Source: Nemertoderma westbladi
Lineage: Eukaryota; Animalia; Xenacoelomorpha
Assembly (NCBI GenBank): GCA_032718475.1
Contig: JAUCBJ010004647.1
Span: forward strand, 1 to 45,791
DNA: 45,791 bases
Direction: 5' to 3'
Shown here piece after piece: positions 5,743 through 40,820 of the stretch. The notes below the pieces were generated by a model that saw nothing but the letters and a program-made list of their open reading frames with translations, searched no databases and was not told where the DNA came from. A program made the translations under genes and the position numbers. Each line of letters opens with the position of its first letter. Position 1 is the first letter of the stretch.

Positions 5743-5762
5743 TACAAAAACAAAATGTAACC

Positions 5763-10745: not shown

Positions 10746-12548
10746 AGTTAAAGTGTTAAAATTAATCTGGGTGCACCAAAGCAATAAACAAAAGTTTAAG
10801 ATGGTTACAGGACAAGTTGTATCTAGTCAAGTTTTTTAAAAATTATAAAAGAAACATTTTTATAGTCAAATTTTGTTTGTTTTTCTTTTAATTTTTAAAC
10901 TCCCGCTTCTTTTCTTGGGGGCTGCAGTCCCGAAACCCCGGCATTCCCTGTGTGCCCGTGGTGAAAGACTTTGAGACCATTTTTAAATAATTAATTCATG
11001 TTTGGTTTGTATCATCAGATAATAAATTGACTAAGCCTAAAGTAGGAGCTGTATTGAATGTTAACCAAATTAATATATAAATTACTACAATATTATATAA
11101 TTCAACAAAATCCTATTAAAAATATTGCAAGTAACCAGGAAATTTAATTAGTTTATCCATATGTAATGCTGAACACAGAATACAGGTCGACGCATGTCGA
11201 TTTTACCCTGGAGAGGTATAATTTTGATCGCAACAATAATATAGCAACCAATACAATGGGTACTATTCAGGACACATTACTGCATATTTTTTGAATGGCA
11301 TATGACAGTATGGTATTACAGTACAGCAGTATACCGGTATTGCTGTAGCAATACCGGTATAGCTGTAGGATGGGCTGCAATGCTGTGCTGTATTGTTTAT
11401 TGTATTTTCCGGTAGTTTTCAAAGGTTTTCAAATTGTAACACAATATGAGATATACAGTCGGTGTCTCAAAGTGCATCTGTTCTTTGAGATTTTCTCAAA
11501 GTTTTTCTAAAAGTGTCTAAAAGTCATTACATTACTCCCAACGGCCGCTTTGAATTCTTGTAGACACTTTTACGTGGGAATCTCAAAGTGATTTCCTGCT
11601 TTCAGGCACTTTGAATTCTTTGAGAAATGTCACTTTGAGGTAGTTTGCGGCACTTTTAATTCTTTGAGAAAATAAACTCCAAGGTATTCCTGATTGACAG
11701 CTCGTGGTAAGTTAACAGATTCAGAGGCATTCTCGGGGAACAATATTATGCGGGCAACAAAGTGATACTTGTGTGCTGGCCAGTTGTTGCATAGAAGCTA
11801 TATTCCCATTAATTTATCAAATTGAGGTTCCTGAGGTCATTACGGGATGGGTTTTCGGTCGCAAGTACAAATTGAATTTACGGCACCCTAAAGTCTTTCT
11901 AAAAAATATTCATTCAAATAATACATGAAACATAATTAGGGAAACAAGATTAATGCTTGACAAGATTGATTATTTTAATAACATAAACAATATCAGATTA
12001 ACAATTAATATAAGAGAAACTGCACTGTAGTATATCTCTGTGTATACGCAGTTTCATTATAATGACCTAAAGAAACCCTGTTGGGAGAAAGCTTGTAATA
12101 ACTTTTGTTATTCATTTCATTAGTCACCTCAGGTCAAACCGTACTACCTTAACTGTTTAATTAATATGATAACTATGTTGACGAGAGCCGCGCGAATTCC
12201 TTCTTAAAAACTAAGAAAGGCTTTCGACTTTCAAGTACAATAGAACGGCTATACAATCTTGTGTTGTTTTAGCTTAATAGAGATATTAAAATATCCCCTG
12301 CCGCTGGCGTTTATATTTGAGCATATTTTAAATGTTTGCCTCATATTCATACTCTGCTATTCTGCTATTCCTATTGACTCTGAGACGTACTGCCTGACTT
12401 CTGCAAATAACACTGTTGTACCGGTACTGGGTTATGATGACAGTGGCTACCATAACTGCGGCCTTACCTGTGGACCTCGCATGTAAAAGGTTATACACGG
12501 GACTCTATTGTATCCATAGTTCAATCATGGCATCGTTTCACAGATGCA

Positions 12549-13754
12549 ATGTTTAAAGAAGCGAAAAATATATTGCTGTCATTGATTCCTGGTAGCGAAA
12601 GGGAGAAGAGTAAGCAATCCTTTGCAAAGTCGCGCCAATTAGGTGAGTCGTTTCGCAAGAATACCGTATGCAACATTCTGGATATTTTTGATTATGATGG
12701 GTTCATAAATCGAACTGGTAGACTTCCTCGATTTGTACCCAGTGATTTGGCTATAATTCCGCCTTTCGCTCTCAGTCACGCCGATACTGCTGTGATGCTT
12801 CGTCAATTGAGTGTCATGCAGGACCGTCTACCAGTAGTAGAGGCGGTTTGTCTGTCTCCGGGTGGATATTCCCCTTCTACAGCTTCTTCGCAACACGGTG
12901 CGATAGCTGTGGTTCCGGTACGGGTACCGGTAACTTCTTGTACCGGCAGCTGTAGTCAACAGTCACCCTACATCTGCAAACCTGATGGCAAGCCAGTTAT
13001 TTCAGTTCCTCGTAATAACACCCTTGCTAGCGGAGCTAATCGTACCGGTGAACCTAATTCGAACCTAAACTTCAGTGCTGCCCTAGGTCATAACCCTCTG
13101 GCACCCGTATTCGTCGCTGCATCACGATCTCTTTCTCCGTTATCTCAAGCGTCGTCGGGGCCTGCTACTACCGGTAGTGGCACTGGCAGGTCTAGCTTGG
13201 TAGCCAACAGCATGTATCCGAATGTTCCACAACAGTGTGATGAAGAATTCGCAGTTCCATATTCTCAGCGTAAGCGTGCTAAGCGGCAGTTGCGCAACCA
13301 GCAGCCGTCGACGGATAACTGGGCATCCAGCAGCGGCAGGCCATCATTTGTAAAAGGGTCCTCAACATCTACTAGTTTTCGCACAGTTCAACCTTCACGG
13401 AAGCTATTCTTAACAGGATGTCATCCTGACGTTGAAACTGCTACAATTACTGGATTTGTTAAAGATAAGCTCGGGTTTGATGTAATTTGCAAGAAAATTT
13501 CGTCAGACGCGGCTTCTGTTCGTTCGTTCCTGATTATTTGTTCTGACTCCGAGCGGACATTGCTTTTGAACCCTACTATCTGGCCTCTATATGCAAGAAT
13601 TAGGGACTTTGAACAGCGCAATCGTATCAATCCGAAATCGGCAACAAATTCCGGGTTTTCTGCTAGACCTAACAGCAGCAGCAGAGAAGTTTTGGATCCA
13701 CAGGTTCCTCAGGGTACCTCTATAGTACTAGTAGTCTATGGTACCTCAGGGTAA
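12549..13754 (+). CDS. LINE ORF1 protein (true start probably near 12434, behind a frameshift)
   Basis: 401-aa ORF with LPRFV..DL..IPP and a C-terminal LFLTG...VRSFLI...IWP block homologous to ORF1 at 4327-5742; sits directly before an endonuclease ORF. Confidence 0.8.
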   Translation: MFKEAKNILLSLIPGSEREKSKQSFAKSRQLGESFRKNTVCNILDIFDYDGFINRTGRLPRFVPSDLAIIPPFALSHADTAVMLRQLSVMQDRLPVVEAVCLSPGGYSPSTASSQHGAIAVVPVRVPVTSCTGSCSQQSPYICKPDGKPVISVPRNNTLASGANRTGEPNSNLNFSAALGHNPLAPVFVAASRSLSPLSQASSGPATTGSGTGRSSLVANSMYPNVPQQCDEEFAVPYSQRKRAKRQLRNQQPSTDNWASSSGRPSFVKGSSTSTSFRTVQPSRKLFLTGCHPDVETATITGFVKDKLGFDVICKKISSDAASVRSFLIICSDSERTLLLNPTIWPLYARIRDFEQRNRINPKSATNSGFSARPNSSSREVLDPQVPQGTSIVLVVYGTSG

Positions 13755-13756
13755 CT

Positions 13757-14038
13757 ATGGCATCTCTAAATAATATAAAAATTGTATCATGGAATTGCAA
13801 TTCCATAAAACATCCAACATCGCAGAGAGTCATACAAGACTATTGCAATGTTGGTTGTGATATTATATTGCTGCAAGAACTTTGTATTCCTAAGCAGGAA
13901 TTATCTTTGCTGTCCCAATTACACCCACAATACTTAGGTAGTGGGGTGTCACCAGTATGCAATTCTGCCGGTATACTGTCTGGGCGTCCCTATGGTGGTG
14001 TAGCCATCCTGTATAACAATAAAATTTATCATGCTGTA
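13757..14038 (+). pseudogene. LINE ORF2 endonuclease, N-terminal part, interrupted by LTR element insertion
   Basis: SWNCNS, ILLQE, GRPYGGVAILY; joins 40821 in frame (KIYHAV|EILSSHNERF...) when the insert and one CTGTA copy are removed. Confidence 0.92.
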
Positions 14039-14164
14039 TATAGAATTATATTCCCTAAATGCCGTGGATTTTCAAAATTTTATTTTATTCGAATTAACTT
14101 TGTAAAGATTGCTTTGAGTTCTCATTCGTATTGGTTCTATCATTTGTACACCTATTGGTCAAGT

Positions 14165-14251
14165 GGTTCAGTAGCTCAGTCGGTAGAGCGTTGGAAATTA
14201 TATGTGTAGTAGGTATTGAGTTCGAATCCTAGTAAGTGCGAATTATTTTTT
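14165..14251 (+). ncRNA. tRNA-derived Pol III-type cassette inside the LTR
   Basis: A box TAGCTCAGTCGG (14172-14183) with intact D-stem GCTC/GAGC, B box GAGTTCGAATCC (14218-14229), T6 run (14246-14251); acceptor and anticodon stems do not fold, so not a true tRNA. Confidence 0.6.
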
Positions 14252-14304
14252 GTACAGAATTTCAACTCATTTAAATTAACCGCTACAAATTAATTGCATT
14301 TGTC

Positions 14305-14480
14305 TGTACCAATGAGACTGTAGTTATTTGATTGTAACCAATGTCGTGCAAGTTATATATTAGCTGGACCAATAGCTATCTTTAAAACCCCGTTAGAACC
14401 TATAGAACAATCGAGAATTTTCTCGATTGATTGCGGCACAAATTTAGTATATAAAGGTGCGATTTGTTCATTAGTTACCA
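14305..14480 (+). promoter_or_regulatory. Candidate LTR Pol II promoter
   Basis: Cluster of CCAAT boxes (about 14309, 14338, 14369), palindrome CAATCGAGAA-TT-TTCTCGATTG (14408-14429, HSE-like), TATATAAAG 14448-14456, Inr-like TCATTAGTT 14468-14476. Confidence 0.55.
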
Positions 14481-15941
14481 ATCTTATACTTTACAGATTA
14501 TATCTCACACACATCACTTCAATTCTGTCGTGCTTAGTTTATTTCAGATTACATTGTATTATAATTATATCTTCTGTAATAAAGTCAGAATTATCGCTAA
14601 TCTGCTTTTCTATCTGTTTTACCATGATTCACTACGGTGAACAAAGTTAAGGGACAGGATGGCCGGCTAGAGATCGGGCCGCAGCAATGAACGGGAACAT
14701 CACAGGAATGTAGACGAGAGACAACCCGCAATACCATCTTGAGTTATTCGCCCATCGCCTGAAAGGTTAGACAGCGTTCGACGCCTTGCTACCTAAGTAT
14801 AAGACCAAAAGATCAAAAGGTAGAAGTAGTGACACGCTGTGAGCCTAAAATTACACCTTAGGGACTGTACTGTCTTGATTCAGGAAAAACCACAGTAGAC
14901 CTTCACATTCCTATGGGGGGGGGGGGGGGGAGAGCAGGCAGATACTAGTACGCAGATAGGACGTAGGCACACCGGTACGAAGCATACAAATTGGTAGGGT
15001 GCAGCAAACTGTACGCCTAACTCTTGCTAAGTACAGGTGTGTGTGCGACTATTTGTAGTACGACAGTGTCCATTGCATTAGAACTTGTAGGCTAGGGGTG
15101 TTGCTGTGTTTTCACCTGAATTGGGATTGTACCGTTCAGGCGGTAGGGCAGTTTACAGCTAGGCGCAAATAAATTGAGGCTATTAGGGATATACTAACAT
15201 CTACCGTGTCCCCGCCAACGCCCTAATAGGAAGTTACCCGGACTACCTGGGTGACTAAAATTCTAGATAGGAGCCAGGATAGCTATTAGTAACTGTACGC
15301 CTACAGTAGTAAACTAACACATCTCTTCTTAGTATCAGGGACCTGGTACCTAAAATTGCCGAATTCTGGGCGTAGCATTAACCCTATGCCTGAATTTGAG
15401 TCCTGGAAATACGCAAGAGGGGAAGGAACCTTATCATTCGTGAGTATTGGACCTACAAGTTACAAAATTAGAATATTCGTAAAATGCACACCGTACCCAG
15501 TAATTATATATGTGAAGGAGCAAAACTGCTTTGACCGTTCAGAATTAACACACGCGCGTTAGAAATTATTTACACCTCAAAATATATAAAATTAACTTTG
15601 TCCGTACTGTGCTTTGCCCGCTAGTTAGACATCTCCAAATCTCTGCCTGTACCTAGCTAGCGTCTCTTCGCCCAACCATATAAATCACACCGCGGCAAAG
15701 TGTACGAGCCCCTTAGTCCGTCAGTGAGTCAGCCTGATTTTAGGATTCGCTGCGCGGGATTTGTTTTATCGAAGTTTGTCTGCTCGTAGACTGTTTTCTG
15801 CCTCACCGGTTATAAGAGATCGATACTGCAATATATTCGCTTACTTAGAGTTTACTGTTTTGGTGAGAAGGTCGGATTTATGATTTGATTCACAAACTTT
15901 ACAGTAGGATATTGCAGGTATTGTTACCGTCTCTTCCAATA

Positions 15942-15952
15942 GTAGGAATGTG
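15942..15952 (+). promoter_or_regulatory. Non-tRNA primer-binding site of element A
   Basis: GTAGGAATGTG abuts the 5' LTR; reverse complement CACATTCCTAC at 39786-39796 (CACATTCCTAT at 14904-14914). Confidence 0.7.
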
Positions 15953-16756
15953 TTTTACTGAACTACGGTTCGGTAGGACTAAAGTTATTTGAAAATTTTG
16001 TATTTTGAGGTAAAAGTTTGTATTTGATTAGCTAAGTGCTAATTTTTTGAAATAAAAATTTGATTTGAACCGCGTGTAAAATATTTTTGGAATTGAATAC
16101 CGGTGTTTAAAAAGGGGTTTAAATACCATATTGTACCGGTACAAAATTTTTCGTAAAAGTAAAACCTAACTCTTTTGTTTTTTCAGGATTCAGAACTCAT
16201 TTCTAGACTGTAACGGGTGCAAGACCGTGTTTAGCAAGTTTGGGAGATAGATAACTCAACAACTTTGGTTGGGAAAATCGCGTTTCGTCCGCAACGCTGA
16301 AAACGGAAAGGTTCACGTCCGGTTTGTATCTGGGAATCTGTTTTTCTGGAGAATTATTGGAGTGGGTGAGTTCGAAAAGTTGCATAAATAAGTTAGGCAT
16401 TACCGTATTAGTTAAAATTATTGTGGGTTCCACTGTCTCAAGTATTTATGCATTCCGTATGATTTCTTTGTTCATTGCTGAATTAGTCCGTATTATTGTA
16501 TTTAATTTACCTTTTGATAACGCATATCGTTATCCGATTTATTTGTTATAAAATTGGCCGCTAGGCTAATTTTATTATATACTTATTCCGTGACATTTAT
16601 TTGCTGTAAAATTGGCCGTTTTAGGCTAATTTTATCCATCTGCTATAAAATCGGCCGGTAGGCTAATTTTATATGACTGTAATTAGTACCGTTTAGATAT
16701 AAAAACGGTAAGTTTGATACTTTGACACTCACTTTACTTGACTTACAACTACCGAA

Positions 16757-19700
16757 ATGAGTGACAAACAAGACTATACGAAGAACACACCTACCAACTA
16801 TGACTCGTGTGACGCGGATAAGTCAGCAGCGGAGGAACAACAGGGGAAGACTCGCGAGCCTACCGAACCTACACCGTGTGCGTCACCAGTACATCCAACG
16901 GGAGTACCGGATGCCGTAGTACGAGGCGACGGCAGGACCGAGGACTTTCTAACTGTTCCGCAACCTAGATACAGGGAAACGGACATGGTAAGTTCAGCAG
17001 GAAGTCAGGAGAGCGTGGTTAGAAGCGTCGGTGGATACATGGCGCATATTACCAGGAGTATTGGAGAAGGCCAACGCATATTAGACGGGTTGACCGCTCC
17101 GATGTCTCGATTCGAGTTCTACACCCTCCAGGTTAGAGTACAGAGTAAAGTATATAAGTCCGTAGATAATGTAGTTGGCCTACAAGATCTAGCTAGACAG
17201 AGACAGGACATGGATACTCAACTTAGAATCCTCGGGAAACTAATGATCGCTAGAGAGAAACTGATTCAGTTTAAGTCGACGATTAGACAGATACAACAGG
17301 AACAAGCGGACCAGTTGTTAGGTGAGTCAGTTTCGGACGAATTATTACAGCCCGAGGAAGAACAGGAACTGTACCGACTGGATGGACAATTGAAACATCT
17401 GACGGACCACTTACGTATGTGCGGCGAAGACGTCGGCGATTTGGAAACCGTGCCGGAATATACGAGGGAAACTTCACCCGTACGAATCGAATCGGCACCG
17501 GGAATACTGGACCAATCGTTAGTGAGTATTCGCAGCGAAATTGGCGAGATAAGTATCGTGACGTCAGAAATTTCCAGACAGCAACAACAACATGATAGAC
17601 AACAACGGGAAGCGGAGGAACAAGCTCAATTGTTGATGGCACAAGCGGCGGTAGAAGAAGAAAAACTACGTGTTGCGAATGTTGCAAGAATCTCTCATCT
17701 GCAAGAACAAGCCGAGTTGGAAGCGGCCGAGATGGAAAGGTTGGAGTTGGACATCACCCAACAAGCGGCAGCGGCCGAGTTAGCGCAACGAACGGCAGCA
17801 GCCAAGTTAGAGCGACAAACGGCAGCAGCAGCGGCTGAGTTAGAGCGACAGAGGTTAGTATCAGAAGCGAGAGCCGAGATGAAAAAACGGCAAATAAAGG
17901 CTCAATCAGCTATATGACAAGCGGAGTTTGAGGCGCAACAACAACAGACGGAACAACGCGAGAAGGAAGTTAAACTTCATTTCGAACTCGGGAAGAAGGC
18001 GAGAGAATTAGCCAACGCGAAGGAAAATCTGGATCTACAAGCCCGCGATCGATCGATGAGATCTCGAGACGGACATGACTTGGACCAGATAGAGGTAAGA
18101 CATCGCCAAATTCAGGAACGGAAGAAGGAAGGAAGCGTAGGAGCACCCGGACGGGAACGACAATTAGTAAAGGACTTGTGTCAACGATTCCCACAGGTAA
18201 CTCATATGTTTGCACCGGTTACGACTAAGGAACCTGTTTCGATTGCGGGTAGTAGTAACATTTCTCCTATCCATGGTGCGACGGAACACAGGTTTGTTAT
18301 TCCGGACGAGTTTACACCGCCAAGAGCAACGTCGTCGCCTATTCCGAAAGTCAAGGTAAGTAACCCACCGATTACAGATCGTAGTAGTTTGTTGACTGGA
18401 CCTGCACTACTGACGACAAAACAGGTGAGTCCACCGTCGACACCTAAACCTGTTACACACTACGCTTACCCAATGACGTTTAGGCCAACAAGGCCTTTGG
18501 ATTCAAACGCTGTCATTCGCCCACCGGTTCAGTTCACATCGCAATCTACGACTTCGAGGAAGACTTGTGAGCCTACCGAACAACGGAGATCAGTGGACGG
18601 TGTTCCGAAACGAAACGTGAGAATTCGTACGACGCAACGGACGCGAGCACGTCGACCACCATATCCAGATGATAGTAGTACTTCGAGCGAATCGGATTAC
18701 CCGAAACGCGAGGTATTTAGAACAGGGGCGGCCGATGAATATAAACGCGAGCGTTCAGACAACTCCTTTGCAGACAATCCTCCACAGAATACACCAACAC
18801 AGAAGGCGTTACAACCAACGGACGCAATAAGTACACAACAGTTCGCCGACATCCTGCGACCAGTTGTTAACAAGTTGGCTCAGATCGAGGAACGTCTGGA
18901 GGAAGGTTACACCGACAGTTCGAGAAATTCTGAATTCGAACACAACAGACACCCGAAGGAACCACAAAGACCGGTACCTTCAAACCCCACATCGTATCAG
19001 GGAAAAGCGCCAAGAAGGGATATCAACATTACCAACCAAGGACGCGAAACTCTGAACGTTGCCGAGGAGATAGCGTAATTCGCAGCCAGACAAGGATTGC
19101 CGGTGCAACAACCACCGAAGTTTTCCGGTAGCTAAAAACACTGGCATACTTTCGTAGACTATATCGAATCCCAGATCGCCGTGTGCGCCTTTACATCACG
19201 GGAGAAGTTCAATTACCTGCTCCAAACGTTGTCAGGAGAACCTAAACGTTTGGCAGAGACCTTCGTTGGTGTACCAGACGCCTTCGAATTAGCGTACGAT
19301 CGTTTAACTTCGATATACGGAGGTACAGTCAGTATGGCCAGGTCAGTAATAGAGGAACTCTGTAAGGGAGGGGCTATTACTAAACCCGTCGACTTATTAA
19401 AACTGGCCGACGAGATAAAGAACGCTATCACTACTTTAAGATCCATTGGACAACTTGACTACGGGAATACCCCTACAGTCCTATTAAAGATCATAGGACG
19501 ACTCCACCATCGACTTCGTCGGGAGTGGAGAAAGGTCGAATACCAGCGAGAAGAGCGGGGTGGATTCTTAAAATTAGAAGATGTGTACCTTTTAATATCC
19601 AGGGAGGCAGTAGTAGAAACTCGATCTAACTACACTGACCAGCACATCGTGGCAGAAGGAATCACATTGCCATCCTCCAACCGACAAAAACCCCAGACAA

Positions 19701-22700
19701 CATCCACCAAGACGGCCACTTACGCCACATCGACGGAAACCCGACAATTCTCGGACGGTAGTAGAGTATCTGCGCCCATTGGGACAAAACAGACGAGACA
19801 GCAACTTGGTACCGACTTCAGTGGCTGCCAATACTGCGAGCATTTAGGCAAGCGGTATATCGGTCACAAGTTACGAGGTTGTCGACAATTTCGCGAGTTG
19901 AACTCGGAAGAACGACGGCTGCAAATACGGCCATTGGACTCTTGTTGGCGGTGTACGCGACACGGACACGTCCGTAAAGATTGCCCAAATACCGACACTT
20001 GTCCATCCTGTGGACGCAACCACGACGGTCTGCTCCACACAGACAGCCACACGCCGACAAAACGCTTCGCCAGGGAACACCCGGAAGCAGCAGCGAGATG
20101 TGATGCGGCCTACAGAAAACGAGAATCGAAAACGACTCCAACCTTCGTGACCCATATTGAGGATTGCTTCTCAGAACAATCCGGATCGTCGGACGAAGAG
20201 TTAGAAGACGACGACGAATATTCCAATGGAGACGAACAACCGTCGATCGCGCTTCTGACTACTGACCAACTGAAGGGATTCAGTGTAATTCCGATTAAGA
20301 TTACTGGCACAAAGGGGAGTAAGAGAATCTACGCGATTCTAGATTCAGCCTCATCTCACAGTTACGTGGATGAAAAGATAGCTGACGTCGTGACGGATCT
20401 CAGACAAGGTAAGCGCGTCAGTTATACCGTAAGTAGTATGCACGGACAGCGTGCAATACCAGTGACACGAGTCAAGTTAAACTTAGACTCTCTTCTTCCG
20501 AAATCGCAACACAGCGAGAGGGAGAGGTCTTTGTTACCCTTTAAAGATCTAACCTTTGCGGCCACGAAGGACTTTAGTAACCTACTAGGTCCAGTGCCGG
20601 AACAATCTCTAGAGGACCGTAAGTATTTCAGACACCTTGGTGTACCCGAATGTCCTGTCAATTATAGATCGGTAGCCATGCTGATCGGGACAGACCAATT
20701 CAACCTACATCAGGTGTGGGAAACCAGACCATCGGCAGTCGTAGCGGGAAACGCATACGCCTGCAGAACGCCGATAGGGTGGTATACTCGAGCGCCTGTG
20801 CGCACACTAGACGTAAGTGACGAGGAAGATGATGTACAAAGTACATGTAGTTTATTAACTACAAATTCAATTCATTCCTTCTCACACGACGTGAACCATA
20901 CTACACTACAGTCGACAAAACGTGACAGACGTGTGACTAGTATGATAAGTCACAAGGAGCAGCTAACCCACCAGGTGAGTTTAGAACTTGGGGAGAAGAC
21001 GAGTCAGCTAGAGATTCCATCGACGACAGATGATAACGCCGGAAGGCTTGCGAGTCTACCTACCCCAACGACCTCAACAATGCCCGTCGATACAAAGAAA
21101 AAGACGACGGCGGCGAAACTCAAGAAAAAACCGAAGGCGAAATGGAAAGATATAACTTCAAAGGTCAAGAGAGGAAGACTTGCGAGCCTTTCTACAACAG
21201 ACATATCGCCAGACGGTCAACCAGACACGTTACTAGACAGCCAACCAGACATTTTACCAGACATATCACAAAATGTTCTACCAGACATTAGTAACGCACT
21301 GACAAACAGTAAAGCCGCAGTTTCTCTATTGGAGCGGCCTTCTATTGACAAACAACCAGATACGTTACCAGACGTATCGCCAGACACATTACTAGACAGT
21401 CGACTAGACACTAGTAACGTACTGACAAATAGTGAAGCCGCAGTTTCCCTATTGGAGCGGCCTTGTATTGACAAACTACCAATTTTGACACACTTGAGCA
21501 ACCATAAGCACGGTGAAACCTCATGTATTACAGATGTGGGTAGTACCTACGCTAATGTAAATACAGGTGTTACTTTGCGCTCATGAGACATACCGAACTT
21601 GCAACCTATGGTGAAACCTGGGATTAATATCGGCAGAAAAATAAGCTTACCGAAACCCACTGACCCCATAGAGTTCAAACCACCATTAACGATCGACTTA
21701 CAAAGTACTGACAATCAAGGTAAGAAGACAAAGAAGGACAAATTACTTGTAGACCCGGACGGATCAACAGTCAACAAGGGAATACTTACTGGCGGACCCG
21801 TGGGCCCTTCTAGTAAATCAAAACCTTCCAAAATCTCCATTGACTTACCTGATGACGTCACAAATACTTACGTCGACCGTATTGTAAACCTAACAGATTC
21901 TTGGACAAACGCTTGCCGAAAATTAGCGTGGATTGTACGTTTTGTACAATACGTTAAAGGCAAACGTGACTTTACACGTCGACTTACATTGGCTGAGATT
22001 GACAGGTGTGAGATTAAATTAATTCGTCATTACCAACTGCGATATTTCGCGCGCGAATTCACATCTATAAATCAAGGTCAACCAATCAAGTCGTCACCAA
22101 TACTGAGTTGGAGTCCGATTATTTATAATGGCTTAATTTGTCATAAATCTCGGCTTCAAAACATTGACTTTAACACGAACTTTAGGTACCCAATAATAAT
22201 ACCGCAACACCACGAACTACAACGTGCAATGATACTGGACGCACATTTACATCTGAAACACGCTGGAAGACACCACTGTCTTTCCTACTTACGTACTAGA
22301 TTTGTATTAATTAGACCCAGTAAAGCGTTAAGTTCAGTGACACGTACGTGTATTATTTGTAAAAAGGTACATTCTAGAATAGGTACCCAAGAAATGAGTG
22401 AACTACCACAAGCACGACTTCAAGCATTCAGACCACCTTTTACAGAGACTGGAATTGATTGCTTTGGTCCCATACATACGAAACGTGGACGCATACTAGT
22501 AAAACGCTGGGGACTGATTTTCACATGTATGTCCAGTAGGGCAGTTCACATTGAACGTGTGATGGATCTTTCCACCAACGCGTTTATACTAGCACTGCGG
22601 CGATTTATCGCTAGACGCGGACTAGTGAAATGCTTGTACTCAGACCAAGGGACAAACTTTGTTGGTGCTCGGAATGAGATCGCTAGAGCCTTTAAGAAAT

Positions 22701-23380
22701 TAGATCATGATCAAATCTCGAACGAACTACAACCTCACAAGATTGTTTGGAAGTTTAATCCTCCAGATAGTCCATGGAGAGGCGGAGTCTGGGAGAGATT
22801 GATTAGATCTATCAAGACAGCCATGGCAAAGGTCATTCCAGTAAACCACATACTGACAGACGACCAACTGACAACATTGTTTGTTGAAATCGAGGCAATA
22901 CTAAATACTAGACCAATAGTATTAGTACCCGATGACAAACAATCTCAGTTTGCTTTGACACCGGCACACCTGCTTATGCAGGCACCGACTACTTTGACGC
23001 CGATTTCTATTCCAATAGAAAGCGACAGCTACGGTAGAAAAGCGTGGAAAATCACGCAACTACTAGCTAACAAATTCTAGGAAATATGGCAAAACCATTA
23101 TTTGCCCTCTATTTCTGCCAGAACAACTTGGTACAATAACACCCGCGCATTAAAGCCGGGAGATCACGTGCTGTTAGCGGAAGTGAATCTAAAAAGACGC
23201 TTCTGGATAACAGGTGTAATTTTAGCCACACATCCATCTATGGATGGAGTGACAAGAACTGTGACGGTACGGACAATTGACGGTCGTACAGTAGACAGAC
23301 CGACTCAACGTCTCGTACTTCTTGAAGAGACTCGTAATGAGTCTGGAGACTACAAATCTCCAACTAGTATTAGTAAATAA
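16757..23380 (+). pseudogene. gag-pol: Element A Gag-protease-linker-integrase polyprotein; one frame with 5 premature stops; no RT/RNase H
   Basis: ORFs 16757, 18056, 19181, 21599 and 23102 share a frame; EKFNYLLQTLSGEP, three BEL-type Cys/His knuckles (CQYC..H..C, CWRCTRHGHVRKDC, CPSCGRNHDGLLH), protease ILDSAS, integrase HHCC and GIDCFGP / SDQGTNF / GGVWERL, DUF5641-like tail. Confidence 0.93.
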
Positions 23381-24041
23381 TTAGGAGTTTACAAATAGAT
23401 TTCCACGTACCTGTACACCGTAGTAAGGACAGCGGTAGAATTCCATTGTCTTTATATGTGAACATTGAGGGTAGTACCCTTATGTATCACATAGGAGCGG
23501 GATTTGTAGGTATAAGAAATGGAATTCTACTTGGAACTCACAATATTGAGACATTTTCGAAATTTTAGACAATCCATTTGGATTTGAAAATTTTAAAATT
23601 TTCTCCAGTGAATAGATTTCAGGGTACAGTCGGGTGGAACTTAAAATTAGAGAAACAAGAGAGGAAGACTTGCGAGCCTTTCTTAAAATTTTAATTAAAT
23701 TTTACACGGTCTTGTTTCAATAAGTTACGTCAATAAATAGACTCCCCTATATTTATTACTAATTCTTGATTGCTTATTTTCTGATAATAGTTTGGGATCA
23801 AAAAGTGAGTATTTTAGACTCACGGCCAGTTTAGCCCAAATTCGTTTTTATTTCGGCAAAAAATTTTAGATAAGAAGCAGCGTGTCATTAAAGAAACCCT
23901 AGATCTTAGGCTATGGGTAGGAGGTTAGAGCGTTGTCGAGCCAAAAGGGCAGACGAAAACTCTCACGTCTCCTCACAACTAACTACAAACTCTGTTGTAT
24001 TCCCTCTAGTAGCAATGATTATGTAACCATTACTTCCAATA

Positions 24042-25394
24042 ATGGAGAAGGGGATACATGGAGAGCCGAGATGGGGATATGATATCCAAGAGGAAGCAGC
24101 AGCGCCATTCGAAAGATTTGGAGCCAAGGACTATACTATATTCGGTATAAAGGAATTATCGGAAAGTACAGCGAAACTCGCGAGAACTAAATATGACTCA
24201 AACGTATTAAAGAGAAGACAAAACGCATTAAACGAAAGAATCGAAAGTTTGCGTCAAACCTTCAATGAACTTTACCCGTACGACGCTTTGTGTGATACGG
24301 GAGACATTAGCGAAGACCCCGATACTGAAATTAGTCGTTTGTATCATACCATGCAATACCTAAAGGCGCACGAACCTATGCCCGCGGTACGCGATGAATT
24401 CGATGGAATGCATCTTTACAGACGAACTCGAAGGGACGATAGAGAAACCAAGGAAGCATTTTCAGTTTATAAACTTTATTATCAATGCGGTTCTTGTATG
24501 CGCGAACAACGAAATGCGATTCCGATGCGTTTGAATAAGGAAAATCCCGAACCGATATTGGCGAGGTGTTCGAACCATCAACAACTATGTTACCCTATGA
24601 AGGAGAACGTATCGTGGAGATTACGGAAGAATCACGGCAGACGCGCGCACCTATCGGTCACCTTGGTGATGATTTCGAAGTAACTACTACGATCACTGAC
24701 GATCCTTTAGAGGAACTTCTTGAGATAGAAAGGAACCTCCCGAAGAAATCTCAGACGGAGATTCGACAACTTGAAGCAACAGATGCTATAGTTTGTATAC
24801 AACCTTCAGAAACCTACCAACCCATAGACCCAGATGATTACGATTATAGTGTGGGAGGAAGCGCTCGACCGATTGGAGATCTTATATACGAACGAGTGTG
24901 GTACCCTGCCAATACGATGTGTAGTAAATGTGGCGTCGCTGGACATCATATGACAAAGTGTAGTGGAAAGCACATTACTACGACTCAGCTAATCTGTGGA
25001 TGGTGTGGGGATCAAGGGTCTCATACCTTTTATACTTGCTGGAGATTTATGGCTCAATGTACTTACTGCAATATAAAGGGACATCGAGCATCTGAATGCC
25101 AACTAAGAGACATACCTTATGAACACGAATCTGTAAAACTCGTGAGGAAATTATTTGATGAGTGGGAAGATTTAGCCGACGAACATGTATCAGCACAAAG
25201 AAGACGGTTTCCGATGAGAGCGCATCTTGGATTTTGGGCGGTAAATCCTCAAACGATGATGTCGGAAGGATATATCTCCGCTATGCCCCAATATGACGAA
25301 CTTATCGAGGTTGTCGATATTTTGCCCCACGACAGCGGATTCCGAGTGGTGCGCGAGTATCTATTACAAATTCACCCGGATAACAAAACACGTG
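24042..25394 (+). pseudogene. Extra ORF3 of element A, N-terminal part: zinc-knuckle protein
   Basis: Overlapping ORFs 24042-24683 and 24566-25399; CGSC..CSNH plus CSKCGVAGHHMTKC, CGWCGDQGSHTFYTC, CTYCNIKGHRASEC; upstream branch point CTAAC 23979 and acceptor AG 24008-24009. Confidence 0.75.
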
Positions 25395-26602
25395 TGTAAA
25401 AGCCTTTCCTGAATTGCCCCGTTATTTTTATTATCTTTTACATTAAAATACTCTGTAGTTGATTTAATAAGTGTAAGAGACCGTATTATTGCTGTATCGG
25501 TGTTTTTAGAGGATCTAAGACCTATTTCCTCCGTATGTGTACTGTGAAAGGCATATTTTGTGATTCTATGGCAATTCGTGACGCAAAGGGGTGATAGCTA
25601 CTCTTGAACAGTAGTTACTATGACTACGGTTAACAGCTGACATTCATACGTGTTGATTTCCTTTGTTCTACGGCGTCTCTCAGTTCAGTCAGCCAATGAG
25701 AGCGTTTTTGTGGCTCCTTGTACAGAAAATTTCCGAGAAATGACGCAATGCCTATGTGCAGTGTTTACATTCAGTCTTGAGCCAAAGAAAGAACGGCTTG
25801 GAAGTATTTTGTGCTGTACTGCTTTTTAGTCGTACACTAGTAGGTTTAATTATAAAGGGCATATATCCTTTAACGGACGGACTACATGCCTATATCTCAT
25901 TGCTGACATACCGGTACTGACTTGTTGTTTTATACTGCTATTTGCTGTCAGTTCTTCATAATATGGTTGATGAATAATTATATTTGGAATAACGATAAAT
26001 AACCCCGCAACCCAATATTCTTGATATACCTAAGGTAAGAGAGAAAGGTTACCAATAACGATTGTGACTTATGTTAAAGTGGTTTGAAGTGAATCTAATG
26101 TTATTTGATAGACCCTACATGAGTCAGCCTGTGTTCCTTTTATATGTGACTAAAATCAGTGAAGATTGGCAGATTAGTGTGCAGTATTGTGCAGCATTGT
26201 GTATGAGTGAGTCTGTTAAAGAAGCAATTCCTAAAGAATGCGCCATATATGTGAATTATAATTAAGCCATATCGTTGTGAGTAGTTTAAGTCATAACTCT
26301 GTTTATATAGATAAAGCGCCACGTCCTAAAGGAACTGTTAATATTACCGAAGGTGAATAATATTGTCAGAGATTATATAATACTGTCAGTCGAATAATAC
26401 ATTAGGCTTACATAGCAATAAAAATTAAACCGTCGAACCCAATCTCCCTCCCGGGAATATCCAGCGGGTGAATGGTCGCGCACGGATTGGTTTCGACTAG
26501 TGTAGTGAATCAAATACTTGTCATAGACTAAAAAGCGATTTATTATCTAGAAGACATTCTAATTTGGCGGGTTAAACTGCCAAAGGTCTGAAAGCGCGAA
26601 CA
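25395..26602 (+). repeat. 5' LTR of element B (1208 bp)
   Basis: By eye differs from the 3' copy by 2 substitutions and a 4-bp indel. Confidence 0.97.
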
Positions 26603-26614
26603 TTAAAGGATATA
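26603..26614 (+). promoter_or_regulatory. Non-tRNA primer-binding site of element B
   Basis: TTAAAGGATATA abuts the 5' LTR; exact reverse complement TATATCCTTTAA at 25862-25873 and 36677-36688. Confidence 0.7.
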
Positions 26615-26649
26615 GCTTCTTTGTTGCAGTAAGCAATAAAGTTGAAAGT

Positions 26650-26785
26650 ACCGGTCAACCGGTACATCTGTAGGTCAGTAGGCCCAACCGCTAGAATCGG
26701 TACATCTGTAGGTCAGTAGGCCCAACCGCTAGAACCGGTACTTCTGTAGGTCAGTAGGCCTAACTGTTCTAACCGGTACTTCAGT
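26650..26785. repeat. 38-bp tandem repeat, about 3.5 copies, in element B leader
   Basis: ACCGGTACATCTGTAGGTCAGTAGGCCCAACCGCTAGA repeated. Confidence 0.9.
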
Positions 26786-26960
26786 ATAAGTACACTAGTA
26801 TTATTCGATTTGATTATTGCATACCGGTAGGCTGTTTAAGGGATTAGGGATTGATCACCCCTTATACCTTTATATGGTTTACTTATTTCTGTCAAGTTTT
26901 ATTTATTTGTAGGCCAGTATTGAACAGAAGGCGTGTAAGCCTGATCAGATAGTACAGACG

Positions 26961-27530
26961 ATTTGTAGGCTGAGCTGTTGTCTGATTGCTGTTAAGTCCG
27001 AACGAATTGCAGTGTGTGTAGATCACCTGTCCGATTAAGTACGATTAGGCAGTAGGGGCAGCGAACGCTGTAAGGTAATCCCCCAACTAAAGAATAAGTC
27101 GCACTACTGGGTTAGAGCGCATACTCCCTAATCATTTCGGAGTCTGCATGTCCTGTGGTTTATTTAGGCTTGAGAGTGGTCTGCCATCGTTTAGTCTGTA
27201 CTTTGTTTGTGTAAGTCTGTACGGGTAGCGTATAATTTTATTTAGATAATTTGTAGGCTGGATAGTTGTCTGGCTGTTATTAGGTCTGAACGGATTGCCG
27301 CGTGTGTAGATCATCTGTCCGATTAAGTACGATTAGGCAGTAGGGGCAGCGAACGCTGTAAGGTAAACCCCCAACTAAAGAATAAGTCGCACTACTGGGT
27401 TAGAGCGCATACTCCCTAATCATTTCGGAGTCTGCATATACCGTAGTTTGTTTAGGCTTGATAGTAGTCTGTCAGTGTTCGGTCTGTATTTTGTTTGAGT
27501 AGTTTGTACGCGTAGCGTAATATTTATTAT
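26961..27530. repeat. About 288-bp tandem duplication with a near-invariant core of about 130 bp
   Basis: Core 27018-27148 matches 27306-27436; flanks more diverged. Confidence 0.9.
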
Positions 27531-28837
27531 TCAGAGTTTATGCGATTATCCGCAACATTCATTCCCCAAGTTTGTTCCTACAGTAATTGTGTTTGTTATA
27601 CATACCGCTATAGTTAAATTAACCCCGGTACTACACGGGCTGCTCGGCGTAGGTAAAGACTGGTGATTTTGTGCATCGGTCACTCCAGCAGATGCCGTGG
27701 TTCTTTTAGCTGTTCAAGTATATTTAACTACTGATTGTCTGTTATATAAGTACTCGTACCTAATTTAGGGTTTAGTGTACAGTACTTTCCGAAGTAATTA
27801 TTGTAGACATTATATTTGTGTTGTAAAGTGGTTGATAGGCACATTCGATTAGCTCTATTAACTTCTAGGTAGGAACACTCCGTGATACATAACGTAGAAC
27901 CTATAGCGATACGGCTATAGGTCGTCAGGCGGTGGTATTTTCCTATCTAGACAACGCAGTGTATTTACTACTACTTATTATTTCAAATACCGTAGTACTC
28001 TGTCCGTTGTAATAACCAGATTTCTAACCCTTTGTTAGACTGGTTTGTAGACTTCTTGTAAAATTACCCTAAAAATTCGTATTTGTGTTTTTGTAAAATT
28101 TTGTGTTTATTTAGAGATTGTAATCTCAACCCGAATTGTACGTAATTCGTAGTATTAAGTAACTTAGGTAAATTAGAATTATTTGTTTTAGTGTCCTATA
28201 CATAACACTTCACTGAAAGCGCACCGCTTTGTGTAGTGATTACTCCCCAGAAATAATAACATTTATTTCAAACATTGACAAAACCCATTAAAACGGGTAT
28301 ATATATATTATAAATCAAATCTAACGATTTATAAATAGTAGGCCTACCATACAACCATTAGGTCCCAATATCAGTTGGATTACTGCTCAAATAACGGTAA
28401 TAAAGTAAGTAAAGTAACAAAGTAACCCTAAAGTAACAGAAATTCAATTATTTGAAATAATTGATATACCGGTATTTACGATAGGCCTATTATCTTTATT
28501 TCTATAAATCTAGGCTGAAATTATACCGGTACTTGTAATTAATTCTATTTCAGAATTATATATCCTACAAACTGTAAGCTGTATACCGGTATTCCGATAG
28601 GCCTATTATATATTTATATATATTTGTGCTAAAATTACACCGGTATTCTGTGATAAACCTAGTCTGTAATAATAGTTATATATACTATAAGCATACCGGT
28701 ATTCTAATATATTATATATATCACGCTACACTGAGTAGCAGTATCGGTAATTAATTACTAGGCTAGCAGTTAATACTGAATTACTAGACTTGCTTAGACT
28801 GTAATATAGCAGTAGGCATTCAACTGTACACACAAAC

Positions 28838-31800
28838 ATGTCTGACGCAAAGCAGAACCTGTCAGACAGTCTACTAGATACAACGGAGAGTGAAGCGACA
28901 GCAGAGAAACCGCATAAGAGGGATGCCATTGACATCTATCTGTCAGACTATCAGCGTTTTTTGGGAGATGAAGAGTTGAGGAGAAGGCTAGAGGGACTTA
29001 GCCCTAATAGCGAAGGAGCCAAACTTGTGTTAGATGCGATTGATGTGGATAGGTTAGCGGCGAACCAAGCTAAATTCGATGAACAACTCCGCATCGTTAG
29101 AGAACAAGAAGAACAAGTAAAGAAAAAACGTATAGAAGACAGAAAGGCCGCAGCAAAAGCAGAGGCAGAGGCAAAAGCGGCAGCAGCAGAAGCAGCGGCA
29201 GAGGTAAAAGCGGCAGCAGCAGAGGCAAAAGCGGCAGCAGCAGAAGCAGAACGGAAAGCGGCTGAAGAGATCGCCCAACTGGAGTTGGAAACGCTTCAAG
29301 AGAAGCAAGACGACTTCAGTAAACAGTTAACAGCTAGTAATATGCGGATGATGAATCGATCTACTCCCAAAAGACAGGGATATACATCATCTGAAGAAGG
29401 CGATACCACCGATACTGAAGGCAAAGGAAATAGATCTCGTCTAAGCAGACACAAAAGAACATTCCACCGGCAGAAATTGCCTGATTTGCCTCCAGCTGTT
29501 AGAAGGCAACTAAATAACACCAAAGTAGGTAGTACAGAGCCCGCAGACCAAATAATTAAAATAGAAAGACTCCCTACGATAGTAGATGAGCCTGAAATAA
29601 TTAGGCCTGTTCTTGAAATCACCCCTTCGGTGATAGACACACATGTGCTCCCTGAAACTACCTCTAAATTCCCTCTGCATAGCACTAAGCTACCTGTGCC
29701 CCGCAGAACTGCCCAAGAGACAGTTCAGGTCCTGGACCCCGAGCGAAATATTCACAATTTGTCGCCCGTTGTCCCTCGTCCGCCCGCTACAACGTTGGCG
29801 ACTCCCGCTTCGGCGGTCGAATGGGTGGACGAGAGACGGCGGGGGATGGATATCCTGCTCGGGCAGATGCAGGAGACTGTCCAGCAATTCAAGGGCACAG
29901 TAAGGGAAAGTAGACTAGAGTTGCAAGAAGTGCAGCAAAGTATCGCGCTAGAGCGCGATAAATTAGTAAATACTCAAAGAGGTATACCACCACCCTCTGT
30001 AACAATGTGTCAACCCGTTAGGTCTGAAGTATTGCATGCGCAAGGTGTGGAGCCTACACGCATATATACTGCTAGCGAAGTAGAAACTCCTATAGTGAAC
30101 CCTATTAAGGGTAATTATAGACCTGTTGATAATGATATTCCCTATAGAACTGATCATAATCCGAGAAATTTATATACCGATAACTCGATATTAAATAACA
30201 CGATGGCCCAAGAAAGTTTTACGCGTCAAATGGCTAGAACCGAAGCCCGACAAGCGGTAAAGGTTGGAGAGATCGTCAAGTTTAATGGAGATGAGATGAA
30301 ATGGTTACCTTTTAATGAATATTACAAAGATAACATACAGAACTCTGTACTATCTAATGGAGAAAAACTTAGATACCTCATCGAGTGCTTGGAAGGATCT
30401 CCCAAGTTAATGGCATTAAAGTTTATTGGACATCCAGACGGATTAAGACAAGTTTGGGATACACTAAACATCAGGTATGGTAATAGGAATAATATCGCTG
30501 GGTACTTGTATGCAAAGTTAGTAGCGCCCCGAAAGTTTATTAGTAGCGGAATTATCGAGTTTTCCGATGAGATCCAGGAGATCTGCAGACAATTAGATTG
30601 GCTAGGTAAGTCTCACGAGTATCAGAACACTATGGTTATTAGAGCAGTGGCTTCTACTTTACCTAAAGGTGGAGTAGGTACACGCTGGGATAAGAAAGTG
30701 TTATATATGATGGAACAACAACGGCGAGACCCTACCATGGCTGATCTCATGTCATTCTTAGATGGAGAAGTGAAATTACAGCTCCTAAGGCAGTCCAGAG
30801 AGAGGACATTGGAAAACAAGGTAAGTGAGAAACCCGTTTCTAGGAGAAGGGTAATACCAGTATGTTATACCGACGACGGTGAAAGCCAAACTTCTCAAGG
30901 AGAGGACAGCGGGAAAGACACTGACAGATCTTATGTCAATAAAATGCCTAAAGATCAGGTAAGTAAATCCAAGTCTCGACCCAATGACAGAAGGGAACCG
31001 GTACAAAAAACCCCTCCTACGTCTCCTAAAAGAATTCAGGTGAGAAAGCCCGAGGAAAGAACAAGTGTGCACCACACAGCACATGTTAAAGTAAGTAACA
31101 TCAAGCCCAAATGTGTGCTGTGCGACGGGCCCCACCGTTTAAATGCGTGTGATAAATTCCTGAGGAAATCACTAAAGGATAGACGTGAAGTCATGTGGGA
31201 TAAGCGGTTGTGTTATAATTGCCTCAGACGAGGACACCAACGGCGAACCTGTAACTCCGACGCAAGGTGTGCAAAGTGCGGCGCAAAACATCATATCTTG
31301 TTGCACACGGAATTCGAACGAAACAGCCCGAGTCAGGTAAGTGAGTCCGAACTACATGTCCAATTCAGTGATGTGAACGACACTGATCAATCTGAGATGG
31401 AAGGATTCTATACGGACGAGTTCTCCGACCAAAACGAATCCTGTTACCTAATAAACACCACCGCAGTGTATCGAGCACTCGTACATGAGAAAGACACAGA
31501 CAGCGACCTTACCTTAACTACTTCCGATCAACAACCATCTTGGAAAGCGCCAACTTCCAATATAGGAATCCGAGAGTTTCCTGTGGTGCAGGTAAGGGTG
31601 CACGGACCTAAACGGAGTTATGTAGTGAACGCCCTCCTGGACTCCGGCAGCACAGGAACATTCATCGATAAAGAGCTAGCCGAAGATATATTTGCTGGAC
31701 AACCCAAGTTCCAAACTAAGCTCAACATGTCAGGCATTATGCAAGTTTGGAAATCTACAATAACAGCTGATTATTATGTAGGCGCGTTGTCCACCCCACA

Positions 31801-32407
31801 AGACGAACTAGGAGAACATAGCATCAGGTCAGTGAAAATGGTGGCTATAAAGAACTTCGCTACTACTCAAGCAGACCTTTATAATTGGGACGAGGATGAG
31901 AGCATCCAACATCTTAACATACCTCGATTCCAGACTGATTATCCTGGAGTGCAAATACTCATCGGCCAAAACGCGCATGAGGCGCTGGAGACATTAGAGA
32001 AACGACCTGCTCAACCGCAACCACTTCAGCCCTATGCGGTAAGAACTAGAGTAGGTTGGTACCTTACTGGACCTTCCCGTAGAACGCTCAGAGAAAGACT
32101 GCTTCAAGATCGCGTCTGCCAGCGGAGTAAATGGGAAGATGATACTAGTGAGGGAGACGACCCAACTGAGGGAACACCACACTCCTCAGATAATGACAAT
32201 CTTAGCTCCAATGTAGATCAATGGAGATATTGCCCCAAGAAGTTTAATCCAACGGACATCGCTTCCAGAGGAGCAACTCCTCAAGAACTGACAGATACTA
32301 CAGACCGATTAGGTGAACCCGACTTCCTGAGTAAGGAGAATGAATGTCCTCCCCATCTTACTCCGACTGAGATTATACCAGCCAAGGGAGGACCTTCGAA
32401 TACGTAA
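28838..32407 (+). CDS. gag: Element B Gag-protease polyprotein with RNase H C-terminal remnant (ran to 33433 before the RTE insertion)
   Basis: KFNGD..W..F, EKLRYLIECLEG, knuckles CVLCDGPHRLNAC / CYNCLRRGHQRRTC / CAKCGAKHHILLH, protease ALLDSGS, RTRVGWYLTG, then WRYCPKKFNPTDIASRG. Confidence 0.93.
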   Translation: MSDAKQNLSDSLLDTTESEATAEKPHKRDAIDIYLSDYQRFLGDEELRRRLEGLSPNSEGAKLVLDAIDVDRLAANQAKFDEQLRIVREQEEQVKKKRIEDRKAAAKAEAEAKAAAAEAAAEVKAAAAEAKAAAAEAERKAAEEIAQLELETLQEKQDDFSKQLTASNMRMMNRSTPKRQGYTSSEEGDTTDTEGKGNRSRLSRHKRTFHRQKLPDLPPAVRRQLNNTKVGSTEPADQIIKIERLPTIVDEPEIIRPVLEITPSVIDTHVLPETTSKFPLHSTKLPVPRRTAQETVQVLDPERNIHNLSPVVPRPPATTLATPASAVEWVDERRRGMDILLGQMQETVQQFKGTVRESRLELQEVQQSIALERDKLVNTQRGIPPPSVTMCQPVRSEVLHAQGVEPTRIYTASEVETPIVNPIKGNYRPVDNDIPYRTDHNPRNLYTDNSILNNTMAQESFTRQMARTEARQAVKVGEIVKFNGDEMKWLPFNEYYKDNIQNSVLSNGEKLRYLIECLEGSPKLMALKFIGHPDGLRQVWDTLNIRYGNRNNIAGYLYAKLVAPRKFISSGIIEFSDEIQEICRQLDWLGKSHEYQNTMVIRAVASTLPKGGVGTRWDKKVLYMMEQQRRDPTMADLMSFLDGEVKLQLLRQSRERTLENKVSEKPVSRRRVIPVCYTDDGESQTSQGEDSGKDTDRSYVNKMPKDQVSKSKSRPNDRREPVQKTPPTSPKRIQVRKPEERTSVHHTAHVKVSNIKPKCVLCDGPHRLNACDKFLRKSLKDRREVMWDKRLCYNCLRRGHQRRTCNSDARCAKCGAKHHILLHTEFERNSPSQVSESELHVQFSDVNDTDQSEMEGFYTDEFSDQNESCYLINTTAVYRALVHEKDTDSDLTLTTSDQQPSWKAPTSNIGIREFPVVQVRVHGPKRSYVVNALLDSGSTGTFIDKELAEDIFAGQPKFQTKLNMSGIMQVWKSTITADYYVGALSTPQDELGEHSIRSVKMVAIKNFATTQADLYNWDEDESIQHLNIPRFQTDYPGVQILIGQNAHEALETLEKRPAQPQPLQPYAVRTRVGWYLTGPSRRTLRERLLQDRVCQRSKWEDDTSEGDDPTEGTPHSSDNDNLSSNVDQWRYCPKKFNPTDIASRGATPQELTDTTDRLGEPDFLSKENECPPHLTPTEIIPAKGGPSNT

Positions 32408-32961
32408 GGGAAAGGCATGGGCAGCCTTGAATAGGCTTTCCAGGATTTGGAAGTCACCGAGAATTAATCGGAAACTTAAGGTCCGATTATTTAGAGCAGC
32501 AGTAGTTCCAGTACTCCTCTATGGGAGTCCATGCTGGGCTCTAACTGCTGAGGACACCAAATCTCTGGATGGCACATTCACAAGAATGCTACGCCGGGTT
32601 CATTGTGTCAAGTACAATGCACACATCTCCAACCAGACACTATATAACATTGGAGGTGTCTCATTGGTTCCCCCAAGCTTGACACTAGAACAAAATCGCC
32701 TCCGCTTTGCAGGACATTGCTTTCGCCGTGAGGACCAGCCAGTGCATAATCTTGTACTTTGGCAGCCTCATGGAGTGAATAAGCATGGTGGACAGCCCAT
32801 GACTTTCTTGAGACGCATCTTAAAGGACACTGGCCTTAAAGATGCGGATGATCTAGCAAATGTCATGGGTGATAGGGAGTTGTGGCGGTGCAATTTTGTT
32901 GACAAGCCGGCACAGCATTCTTAAAAATGCAGCTGCAATGCAGCATGCCGATCCTAGTACT
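32391..32961 (+). mobile_element. 5'-truncated RTE-clade LINE insertion
   Basis: Encodes RKGKAWAALNRLSRIWKS...VLLYGS..W...RLRFAGHC.R (RTE C-terminus); TSD AGCCAAGGGAG at 32380-32390 and 32962-32972. Confidence 0.9.
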
Positions 32962-32972
32962 AGCCAAGGGAG

Positions 32973-33433
32973 CGGAGAAAGTCGAACCTGAAACCCGGAC
33001 GTGTGGATCGGAGTTATTTGAACCCGGGATAGATCTGTCGGTATTACATGTTGCCAGGGACGACGCCGTGGATCTGGGCCTCCCCTCCGCGAGTGGATCC
33101 TTCATGAAGATCAGAGAGAGCGATTGGAGCTCTGGAACATCAGACGTCTCGCAGGGACTCTCACCTCTCCTGCAGAGAGCGACGGACCACTATAGCTCCT
33201 GGAATCGGCTTTGTGACGCCGTCATATACTTTGAGCGATGTTTCTATCGTCACTATTCCAGGACGAAGAGGAAACCTGGAATTGTATTCAGGATGCAGCG
33301 ACTCAATCACCCAGTCAGTCGTTTGTGTTTATCGGAAGGGAATGGAGGACTCTCCGGAAACTGTGGAAGGCAAGATTCTCTTCCCACGACCACCTCCCTA
33401 ATCCTTCAAACATCTAGGGACTCCATAACGTAA
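32973..33433 (+). pseudogene. Distal part of element B polyprotein
   Basis: Removing 582 bp (insert plus one TSD) fuses ...EIIPAKG|AEKVEPE... in frame; contains the BEL motif HYSSWNRL. Confidence 0.8.
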
Positions 33434-36201: not shown

Positions 36202-36209
36202 GGGAGCGG
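36202..36209 (+). promoter_or_regulatory. PPT of element B (GGGAGCGG)
   Basis: Abuts the 3' LTR; same GGAGCGG as element A. Confidence 0.7.
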
Positions 36210-38913: not shown

Positions 38914-38920
38914 GGAGCGG
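38914..38920 (+). promoter_or_regulatory. PPT of element A (GGAGCGG)
   Basis: Abuts the 3' LTR start. Confidence 0.65.
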
Positions 38921-40815: not shown

Positions 40816-40820
40816 CTGTA

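Follow-up and report, generated by a model that had tools for sequence, protein, structure and literature searches.

Two BEL/Pao elements lacking reverse transcriptase are probably primed by their own LTR sequence, and related families may assemble such a primer by splicing

The BEL/Pao retrotransposons are formally described as primed by host tRNAs, the ICTV profile of the Belpaoviridae giving them an 18-nt site that is the complement of tRNA-Arg or tRNA-Gly (PMC8742986), and a sequence-only reading of the present locus had described them in the same way. The question raised by the locus is how reverse transcription starts in two such elements whose LTRs are not followed by a TGG-type site. 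Both elements lie in the window, by which we mean the whole 45,791-nt stretch of Nemertoderma westbladi DNA analysed here. We conclude that A and B, as we name them, are BEL/Pao elements without reverse transcriptase (RT) in which the site after the 5' LTR pairs with a segment of the element's own LTR, and that this segment probably serves as the primer in place of a tRNA.

Comparison of the window with itself revealed two long direct-repeat pairs, corresponding to the LTRs of A and B (Table 1). Element A spans positions 14039-40815, and its LTRs are 99.4% identical to each other with TA...TA ends in place of TG...CA; the relative L009 also has TA...TA LTR termini (6399-6951). Element B spans positions 25395-37413, nested inside the extra ORF of A, with LTRs that are 99.5% identical. 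The two elements resemble the Belpaoviridae in their LTRs, 5-bp target-site duplications, polypurine tracts, DUF1759 gag and protease, and A additionally in its BEL-type integrase. They differ in the missing TGG-type site and the lack of an intact RT/RNase H, RT and most of RNase H being absent from both, and the 1.9-kb LTR of A is above the ICTV range of 0.2-1.2 kb (PMC8742986). The polyproteins of eight relatives match the window in the gag-protease, the RNase H tail (in B) and the integrase (in A), with no match in RT, and the domain order of A and B agrees with the gag-PR-RT-RH-IN order of these relatives. Since RT is absent, both are non-autonomous derivatives, and from their near-identical LTRs we infer recent insertion using the RT of a helper. 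The integrase of A shares 33-47% identity with 120 proteins among the matches listed. Its matches carry PF18701 and many also PF05380, and those named among the matches listed are from molluscs, fish, a sea anemone and a hemichordate. The extra ORF of A (a 286-aa frame) showed no homologue among proteins of 157-501 residues.

Table 1. Positions of the features of elements A and B in the window
Feature	Positions	Strand	Remarks
Left target-site duplication of A	14034-14038	+	CTGTA; right copy 40816-40820
5' LTR of A	14039-15941	+	1903 bp; TA...TA termini
Putative self-primer of A	14893-14914	+	Core 14904-14914 and 7-bp upstream helix 14893-14899
Candidate poly(A) signal of A	15168-15173	+	Sole AATAAA from primer segment to LTR end
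Putative primer-binding site of A	15942-15960	+	No TGG; core 15942-15952
Coding region of A	16742-23377	+	Broken gag-protease (DUF1759), RNase H tether remnant, integrase; RT absent
Extra ORF region of A	24027-25399	+	Past integrase; weak CCHC knuckle; split by B, resumes 37387-38073
Left target-site duplication of B	25390-25394	+	ACGTG; right copy 37414-37418
5' LTR of B	25395-26602	+	1208 bp; TGT...ACA
Putative self-primer core of B	25862-25873	+	Upstream extension of pairing includes G.U pairs and bulges
Candidate poly(A) signal of B	26417-26429	+	AATAAA/ATTAAA
Putative primer-binding site of B	26603-26624	+	No TGG; core 26603-26614
Coding region of B	28805-32407	+	Gag-protease ORF with RNase H C-terminal remnant; without RT and without integrase match
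Polypurine tract of B	36202-36209	+	Ends GGAGCGG like that of A
3' LTR of B	36210-37413	+	Segment copy 36677-36688
Polypurine tract of A	38914-38920	+	GGAGCGG
3' LTR of A	38921-40815	+	Segment copy 39786-39796, exact 11-nt complement

The complementarity described in the sequence-only reading was reproduced in full. In A, 15942-15952 and the 3' LTR segment 39786-39796 are exact reverse complements, and the 5' LTR copy at 14904-14914 provides 10 Watson-Crick pairs and a terminal G.U pair; in B, 26603-26614 is exactly complementary to both 25862-25873 and 36677-36688. The coordinates given in that reading are right. Both matches stand directly at the LTR end (offset 0), TGG is missing from the first nine bases after either LTR, and the pairing of B runs on upstream with G.U pairs and bulges. 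The complementary segments occupy LTR positions 866-876 in A and 468-479 in B. The G.U pair of A sits in the 5' LTR, the copy that would act as primer, which counts against self-priming. Matches of this kind might also be ascribed to chance complementarity in AT-rich LTRs, and the 10-nt match of the A 5' LTR copy alone was equalled by 7 of 200 decoy 30-mers when offsets of 0-5 were allowed; the corresponding figures are 2 of 200 for the A 3' LTR and 0 of 200 for B. An equally long complement exists at 37 of 39,523 (A) and 3 of 39,518 (B) non-LTR positions of the window, the real site counted. Chance sits badly, however, with dinucleotide shuffles of the LTR, which reproduced the match in only 5 (A) and 1 (B) of 10,000 cases, and with the distance between the two elements, whose gag-proteases are merely 22% identical.

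The query for relatives was an alignment of the integrase of A and 42 homologues out of the 120 listed; it led to 103 loci, comprising 79 metagenome loci (drawn from the best 80 of 561 confirmed in a part of the collection) and 24 loci on genome contigs; scans of viral contigs found no relatives. L080-L102 are BEL/Pao DNA on contigs filed as bacterial genomes, and the genome-contig loci probably represent DNA of host animals that ended up in bacterial bins. The LTR end was fixed by a second LTR copy in 11 of the 103 loci, the end of L009 being set by eye. Seven of these 11, which represent six families, show TGG at a distance of 0-5 nt, and their LTR complement does not exceed 5 nt. In the remaining four (L009, L051, L062 and L089), TGG is missing and the contiguous complement is only 6-9 nt long. 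Once a predicted GT-AG intron within the LTR, 76-338 nt in length, is taken out, the complement grows to 11, 11, 15 and 11 nt, respectively, and none of 200 decoys equalled the spliced complement at any of the four loci. A self-complement and a TGG site are thus mutually exclusive in 11 of 11 fixed-end loci, and a strong donor followed by an acceptor was found in none of six TGG-type LTRs.

A blind scan that made no use of the LTR end was applied to 67 loci with upstream gag homology. Among the 21 targets of at least 11 nt, seven begin with a GT that immediately follows WCA, one family accounting for two of them; each of six slid-junction controls contained 0 such targets, and cross-locus pairs gave an expectation of 0.14 per set, nearly all from close relatives. 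The remaining 14 targets, at 11 nt and without the WCA-GT context, are chance matches off the LTR ends together with some real sites that have a 1-4 nt spacer. More were added by scanning another 32 loci under relaxed conditions and by visual inspection. The final tally of the 67 loci is 23 of the spliced type (including L052, a duplicate of L051, as well as L059 and L084 with only 8 Watson-Crick pairs), one with a contiguous segment (L069), 12 of the TGG type and 31 in no class; many of the last are contigs that stop inside the LTR. About 18 loci beyond the four fixed-end ones fit the spliced pattern; about twenty related families show it. A pattern that recurs in relatives and fails in the slid-junction controls speaks against chance, and the blind scan and the fixed-end test together already effectively refute it.

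The covariation across related families that the sequence-only reading had proposed as a check is present: in 22 rows (19 spliced loci, L069, A and B), the own segment forms a mean of 11.4 Watson-Crick pairs with the own site, compared with 1.9 between elements, and the four non-TGG fixed-end loci point the same way with their 0 of 200 decoys each. The own site is energetically the best in 17 of the 22 rows. Because 16 of the 22 rows were picked by the match itself, this matrix describes the pattern, which is tested by the blind scan and the fixed-end comparison; the unbiased subset consists of A, B and the four fixed-end loci, set against seven TGG-type controls. The donors of all 19 spliced rows read GTAAG, GTGAG, GTATG, GTACG or GTAGG, and exon 2 supplies 4-9 nt of the primer. 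The duplexes of the relatives measure 8-15 bp, usually 11, start at the LTR end or at most 4 nt from it, and mostly have AC at the primer end opposite GT; 18 of the 22 sites, that of A included, start with GT. Together with the split between TGG sites and self-complements, the covariation supports the earlier suggestion that the element RNA would supply its own primer.

These comparisons also bear on two other accounts of the site. A host tRNA fragment or another small RNA could be the primer and the LTR complement incidental, and half-tRNA primers do occur in Ty1/copia lineages (PMC6317226). We regard this as very improbable, as the 22 rows contain 19 different site 10-mers, each tracking its own LTR junction, and neither A nor B has a TGG. 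Alternatively, the pairing could be real but regulatory or structural, serving packaging, dimerisation or a translation or splicing switch, with something else as the primer; the GT that follows CA at several sites, like a weak splice donor, is compatible with such a role. This account is also improbable, given that the duplex starts no more than 4 nt from the LTR end, the very position at which a primer has to terminate, that it excludes a TGG site in the fixed-end loci, and that many site sequences, including that of B, are not donor-like.

Both duplexes of the window continue beyond an internal loop into a second short helix, with energies of -21.8 (A) and -19.6 (B) kcal/mol; in A, this helix adds seven pairs between 14893-14899 and 15954-15960. 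When the whole leader is folded, the A duplex is predicted with a mean pair probability of 0.91-0.92 (leader of 1.1-1.2 kb), and the B duplex is absent from the predicted structures (P at most 0.09). The U5 of B contains a local hairpin. The primer segment is separated from the LTR end by 1027 nt in A and 729 nt in B, compared with 45-280 nt in the spliced relatives folded, and the next AATAAA follows the segment at 254 nt (A) and 544 nt (B). A search for a spliced form of the primer in the two elements gave at best 8 nt in A and none in B; A, B and L069 carry the primer segment unbroken. Folding of the spliced leaders of 12 relatives predicts the duplex in six (P at least 0.76), weakly in two (about 0.2) and not in four, and the unspliced leaders predict it in one of the 12. 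A U5-IR-like stem beside the primer-binding site is a feature of Tf1. In the BEL/Pao rows, U5-leader pairing exceeded shuffles in only one of 21 rows (mean z -0.34), which does not support a general U5-leader stem.

In 11 of the 12 relatives, a poly(A) hexamer lies 1-97 nt past the primer end, which places the segment in R. This position would also suit an element-derived primer acting in trans, that is, a short LTR-only transcript, polyadenylated nearby and spliced if it contains an intron, which would pair with a different genomic RNA after trimming or cleavage. The missing prediction of a cis duplex for B and four of the 12 relatives, and the loops of 0.7-1 kb in A and B, would be accommodated as well. 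We nevertheless consider priming in trans unlikely. A cis duplex is predicted for A and six of the 12 spliced relatives, Tf1 offers a precedent for cleavage in cis (PMC7175516, in the part available), and a primer in trans needs a trimming step that is otherwise without explanation.

For self-priming in cis, the following course can be proposed. Transcription would start upstream in the LTR, and the R copy at the 5' end would fold onto the site, after splicing in most relatives and ready-made in A, B and L069. By analogy with Tf1, the RNase H of RT may cut just 3' of the duplex, so that the LTR end would be the starting point of minus-strand synthesis; A and B would depend on the RT of a helper element. 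The sequence upstream of the cut would be recovered from the 3' LTR copy, which would explain the survival of an intron in R, and occasional splicing of that 3' copy would give rise to intron-less primers like those of A and B. Inheritance of the intron requires an unspliced 3' LTR copy, and the probable source of the primer is therefore the 5' copy or a separate short RNA. The sequence-only reading had offered two models, a cleaved 5' fragment as in Tf1 and the trimmed 3' end of the transcript. The first is retained in the form of a 5' copy or a separate short RNA and is not simply Tf1-like, as the primer probably lies further inside the RNA than its first 11 nt; the second, in which the genomic RNA would prime from its trimmed 3' end, was set aside because it would clash with intron inheritance. 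The available part of PMC7175516 describes plus-strand strong-stop DNA as terminating in the site sequence, so a match between site and primer could be maintained when the attached primer is copied. Taking these points together, we lean towards the view that a large animal branch of BEL/Pao builds its primer by means of the host spliceosome: an LTR intron would split the primer, only the spliced 5' copy would prime, and the unspliced 3' copy would transmit the intron, with A and B as processed, intron-less derivatives, so that the window and its relatives would present both states of one system.

Priming type is strongly clustered on the trees. In an integrase tree of 32 labelled rows (L052, L063 and the unlabelled rows left out), 18 of the 19 spliced rows and the intron-less L069 share one branch (100/99), on which L069 is the sister of the spliced L050 (100/100). 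A falls among the TGG-type rows (93/88), and the AU test does not reject grouping all self-complementary rows into one clade (p = 0.108); a quick tree of 102 integrase rows is similar. In the gag-protease tree (34 rows), A and B occupy long branches of unsettled placement outside the TGG group, and the spliced L075 joins the TGG-type L012/L020 (100/99), possibly through recombination or a second origin. Given the integrase placement of A, the long branches of A and B, and L075, a single origin is not established. We hypothesise that A and B lost an intron, the alternative being an independent gain of self-complementarity.

Self-primed reverse transcription is described for the Tf1/Tf2/Tj1, Tf1/sushi and Tcn1 groups of Ty3/gypsy in the accessible parts of PMC7175516, PMC4600332 and PMC5341516; in Tf1, the RNA's first 11 bases pair with the site and are cut off between bases 11 and 12 (PMC7175516, as far as available). 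Going by these partial sources, A and B resemble the Tf1/sushi group in lacking a tRNA site, in the pairing of about 11 nt just past the 5' LTR with a segment of the LTR (R), and in a primer end that adjoins the LTR end. They differ in their proteins, which are of the BEL/Pao type and not of the Ty3/gypsy chromovirus type in pol, and in RNase H cleavage, which is shown for Tf1 and only presumed here. The pairing continues upstream of the core in A and B, so the RNA probably starts earlier than in Tf1; this extension and the contribution of exon 1 in the relatives argue against a primer made of the first 11 nt, and in most relatives, unlike Tf1, the primer spans a predicted splice junction. To judge from their sequences, A and B may thus work in the manner of Tf1/sushi self-priming, Tf1-like in outcome, without belonging to that group. 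In the TAR lineage of plant Ty1/copia (Houba and Osr-1), self-priming was predicted from a complement of at least 10 nt between the post-LTR sequence and the LTR, a length that A and B also reach; these are plant copia elements, and a split primer is unmentioned for them in the portion of PMC6317226 available. Term counts for PMC3118150 gave no occurrence of PBS, primer or tRNA, and our literature search, with subscription journals, Repbase Reports, GyDB pages and supplements outside its scope, retrieved no report of self-priming or of a splice-built primer in BEL/Pao.

If this account holds, a sizeable part of BEL/Pao primes with its own RNA, contrary to the formal definition of these elements as tRNA-primed, and most such families couple reverse transcription to host splicing, a step absent from the literature searched. 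It would account for the persistence of introns inside LTRs and for the many BEL elements without a recognisable primer site, and such elements would be predicted to escape control by tRNA-derived small RNAs. Annotation tools that need a TGG site would miss or mis-trim them.

Several further features of the window were observed. ARAGORN and Rfam, run over the elements, found no tRNA or other RNA family. A tRNA-like stretch in the 5' LTR of A (14165-14250, with a copy near 39047-39132) has A-box/B-box-like motifs and a T run, received no ARAGORN call and scored 12.2 bits (E = 7) with the Rfam tRNA model; it excludes the primer segment and is possibly a captured SINE or tRNA remnant. A G run abuts the primer segment of A, with G17 at 14915-14931 and G9 at 39797-39805, and this difference in length may be a mutation or a sequencing artefact. 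Donor-like and strong acceptor-like sites at 16010-16186 in the 5' untranslated region of A suggest a further intron downstream of its primer-binding site. The pol remnant of B includes a LINE-type 3' fragment at 32331-32924 (DUF6451, below cutoff). A itself is seemingly inserted in a LINE (12456-14209 and 40782-41738), with an endonuclease-type domain past the right junction, and another broken LINE occupies 4948-8305. At 44241-45428 and 3114-4135 there are two elements whose long terminal inverted repeats consist of short tandem units, possible MITEs or foldback elements.
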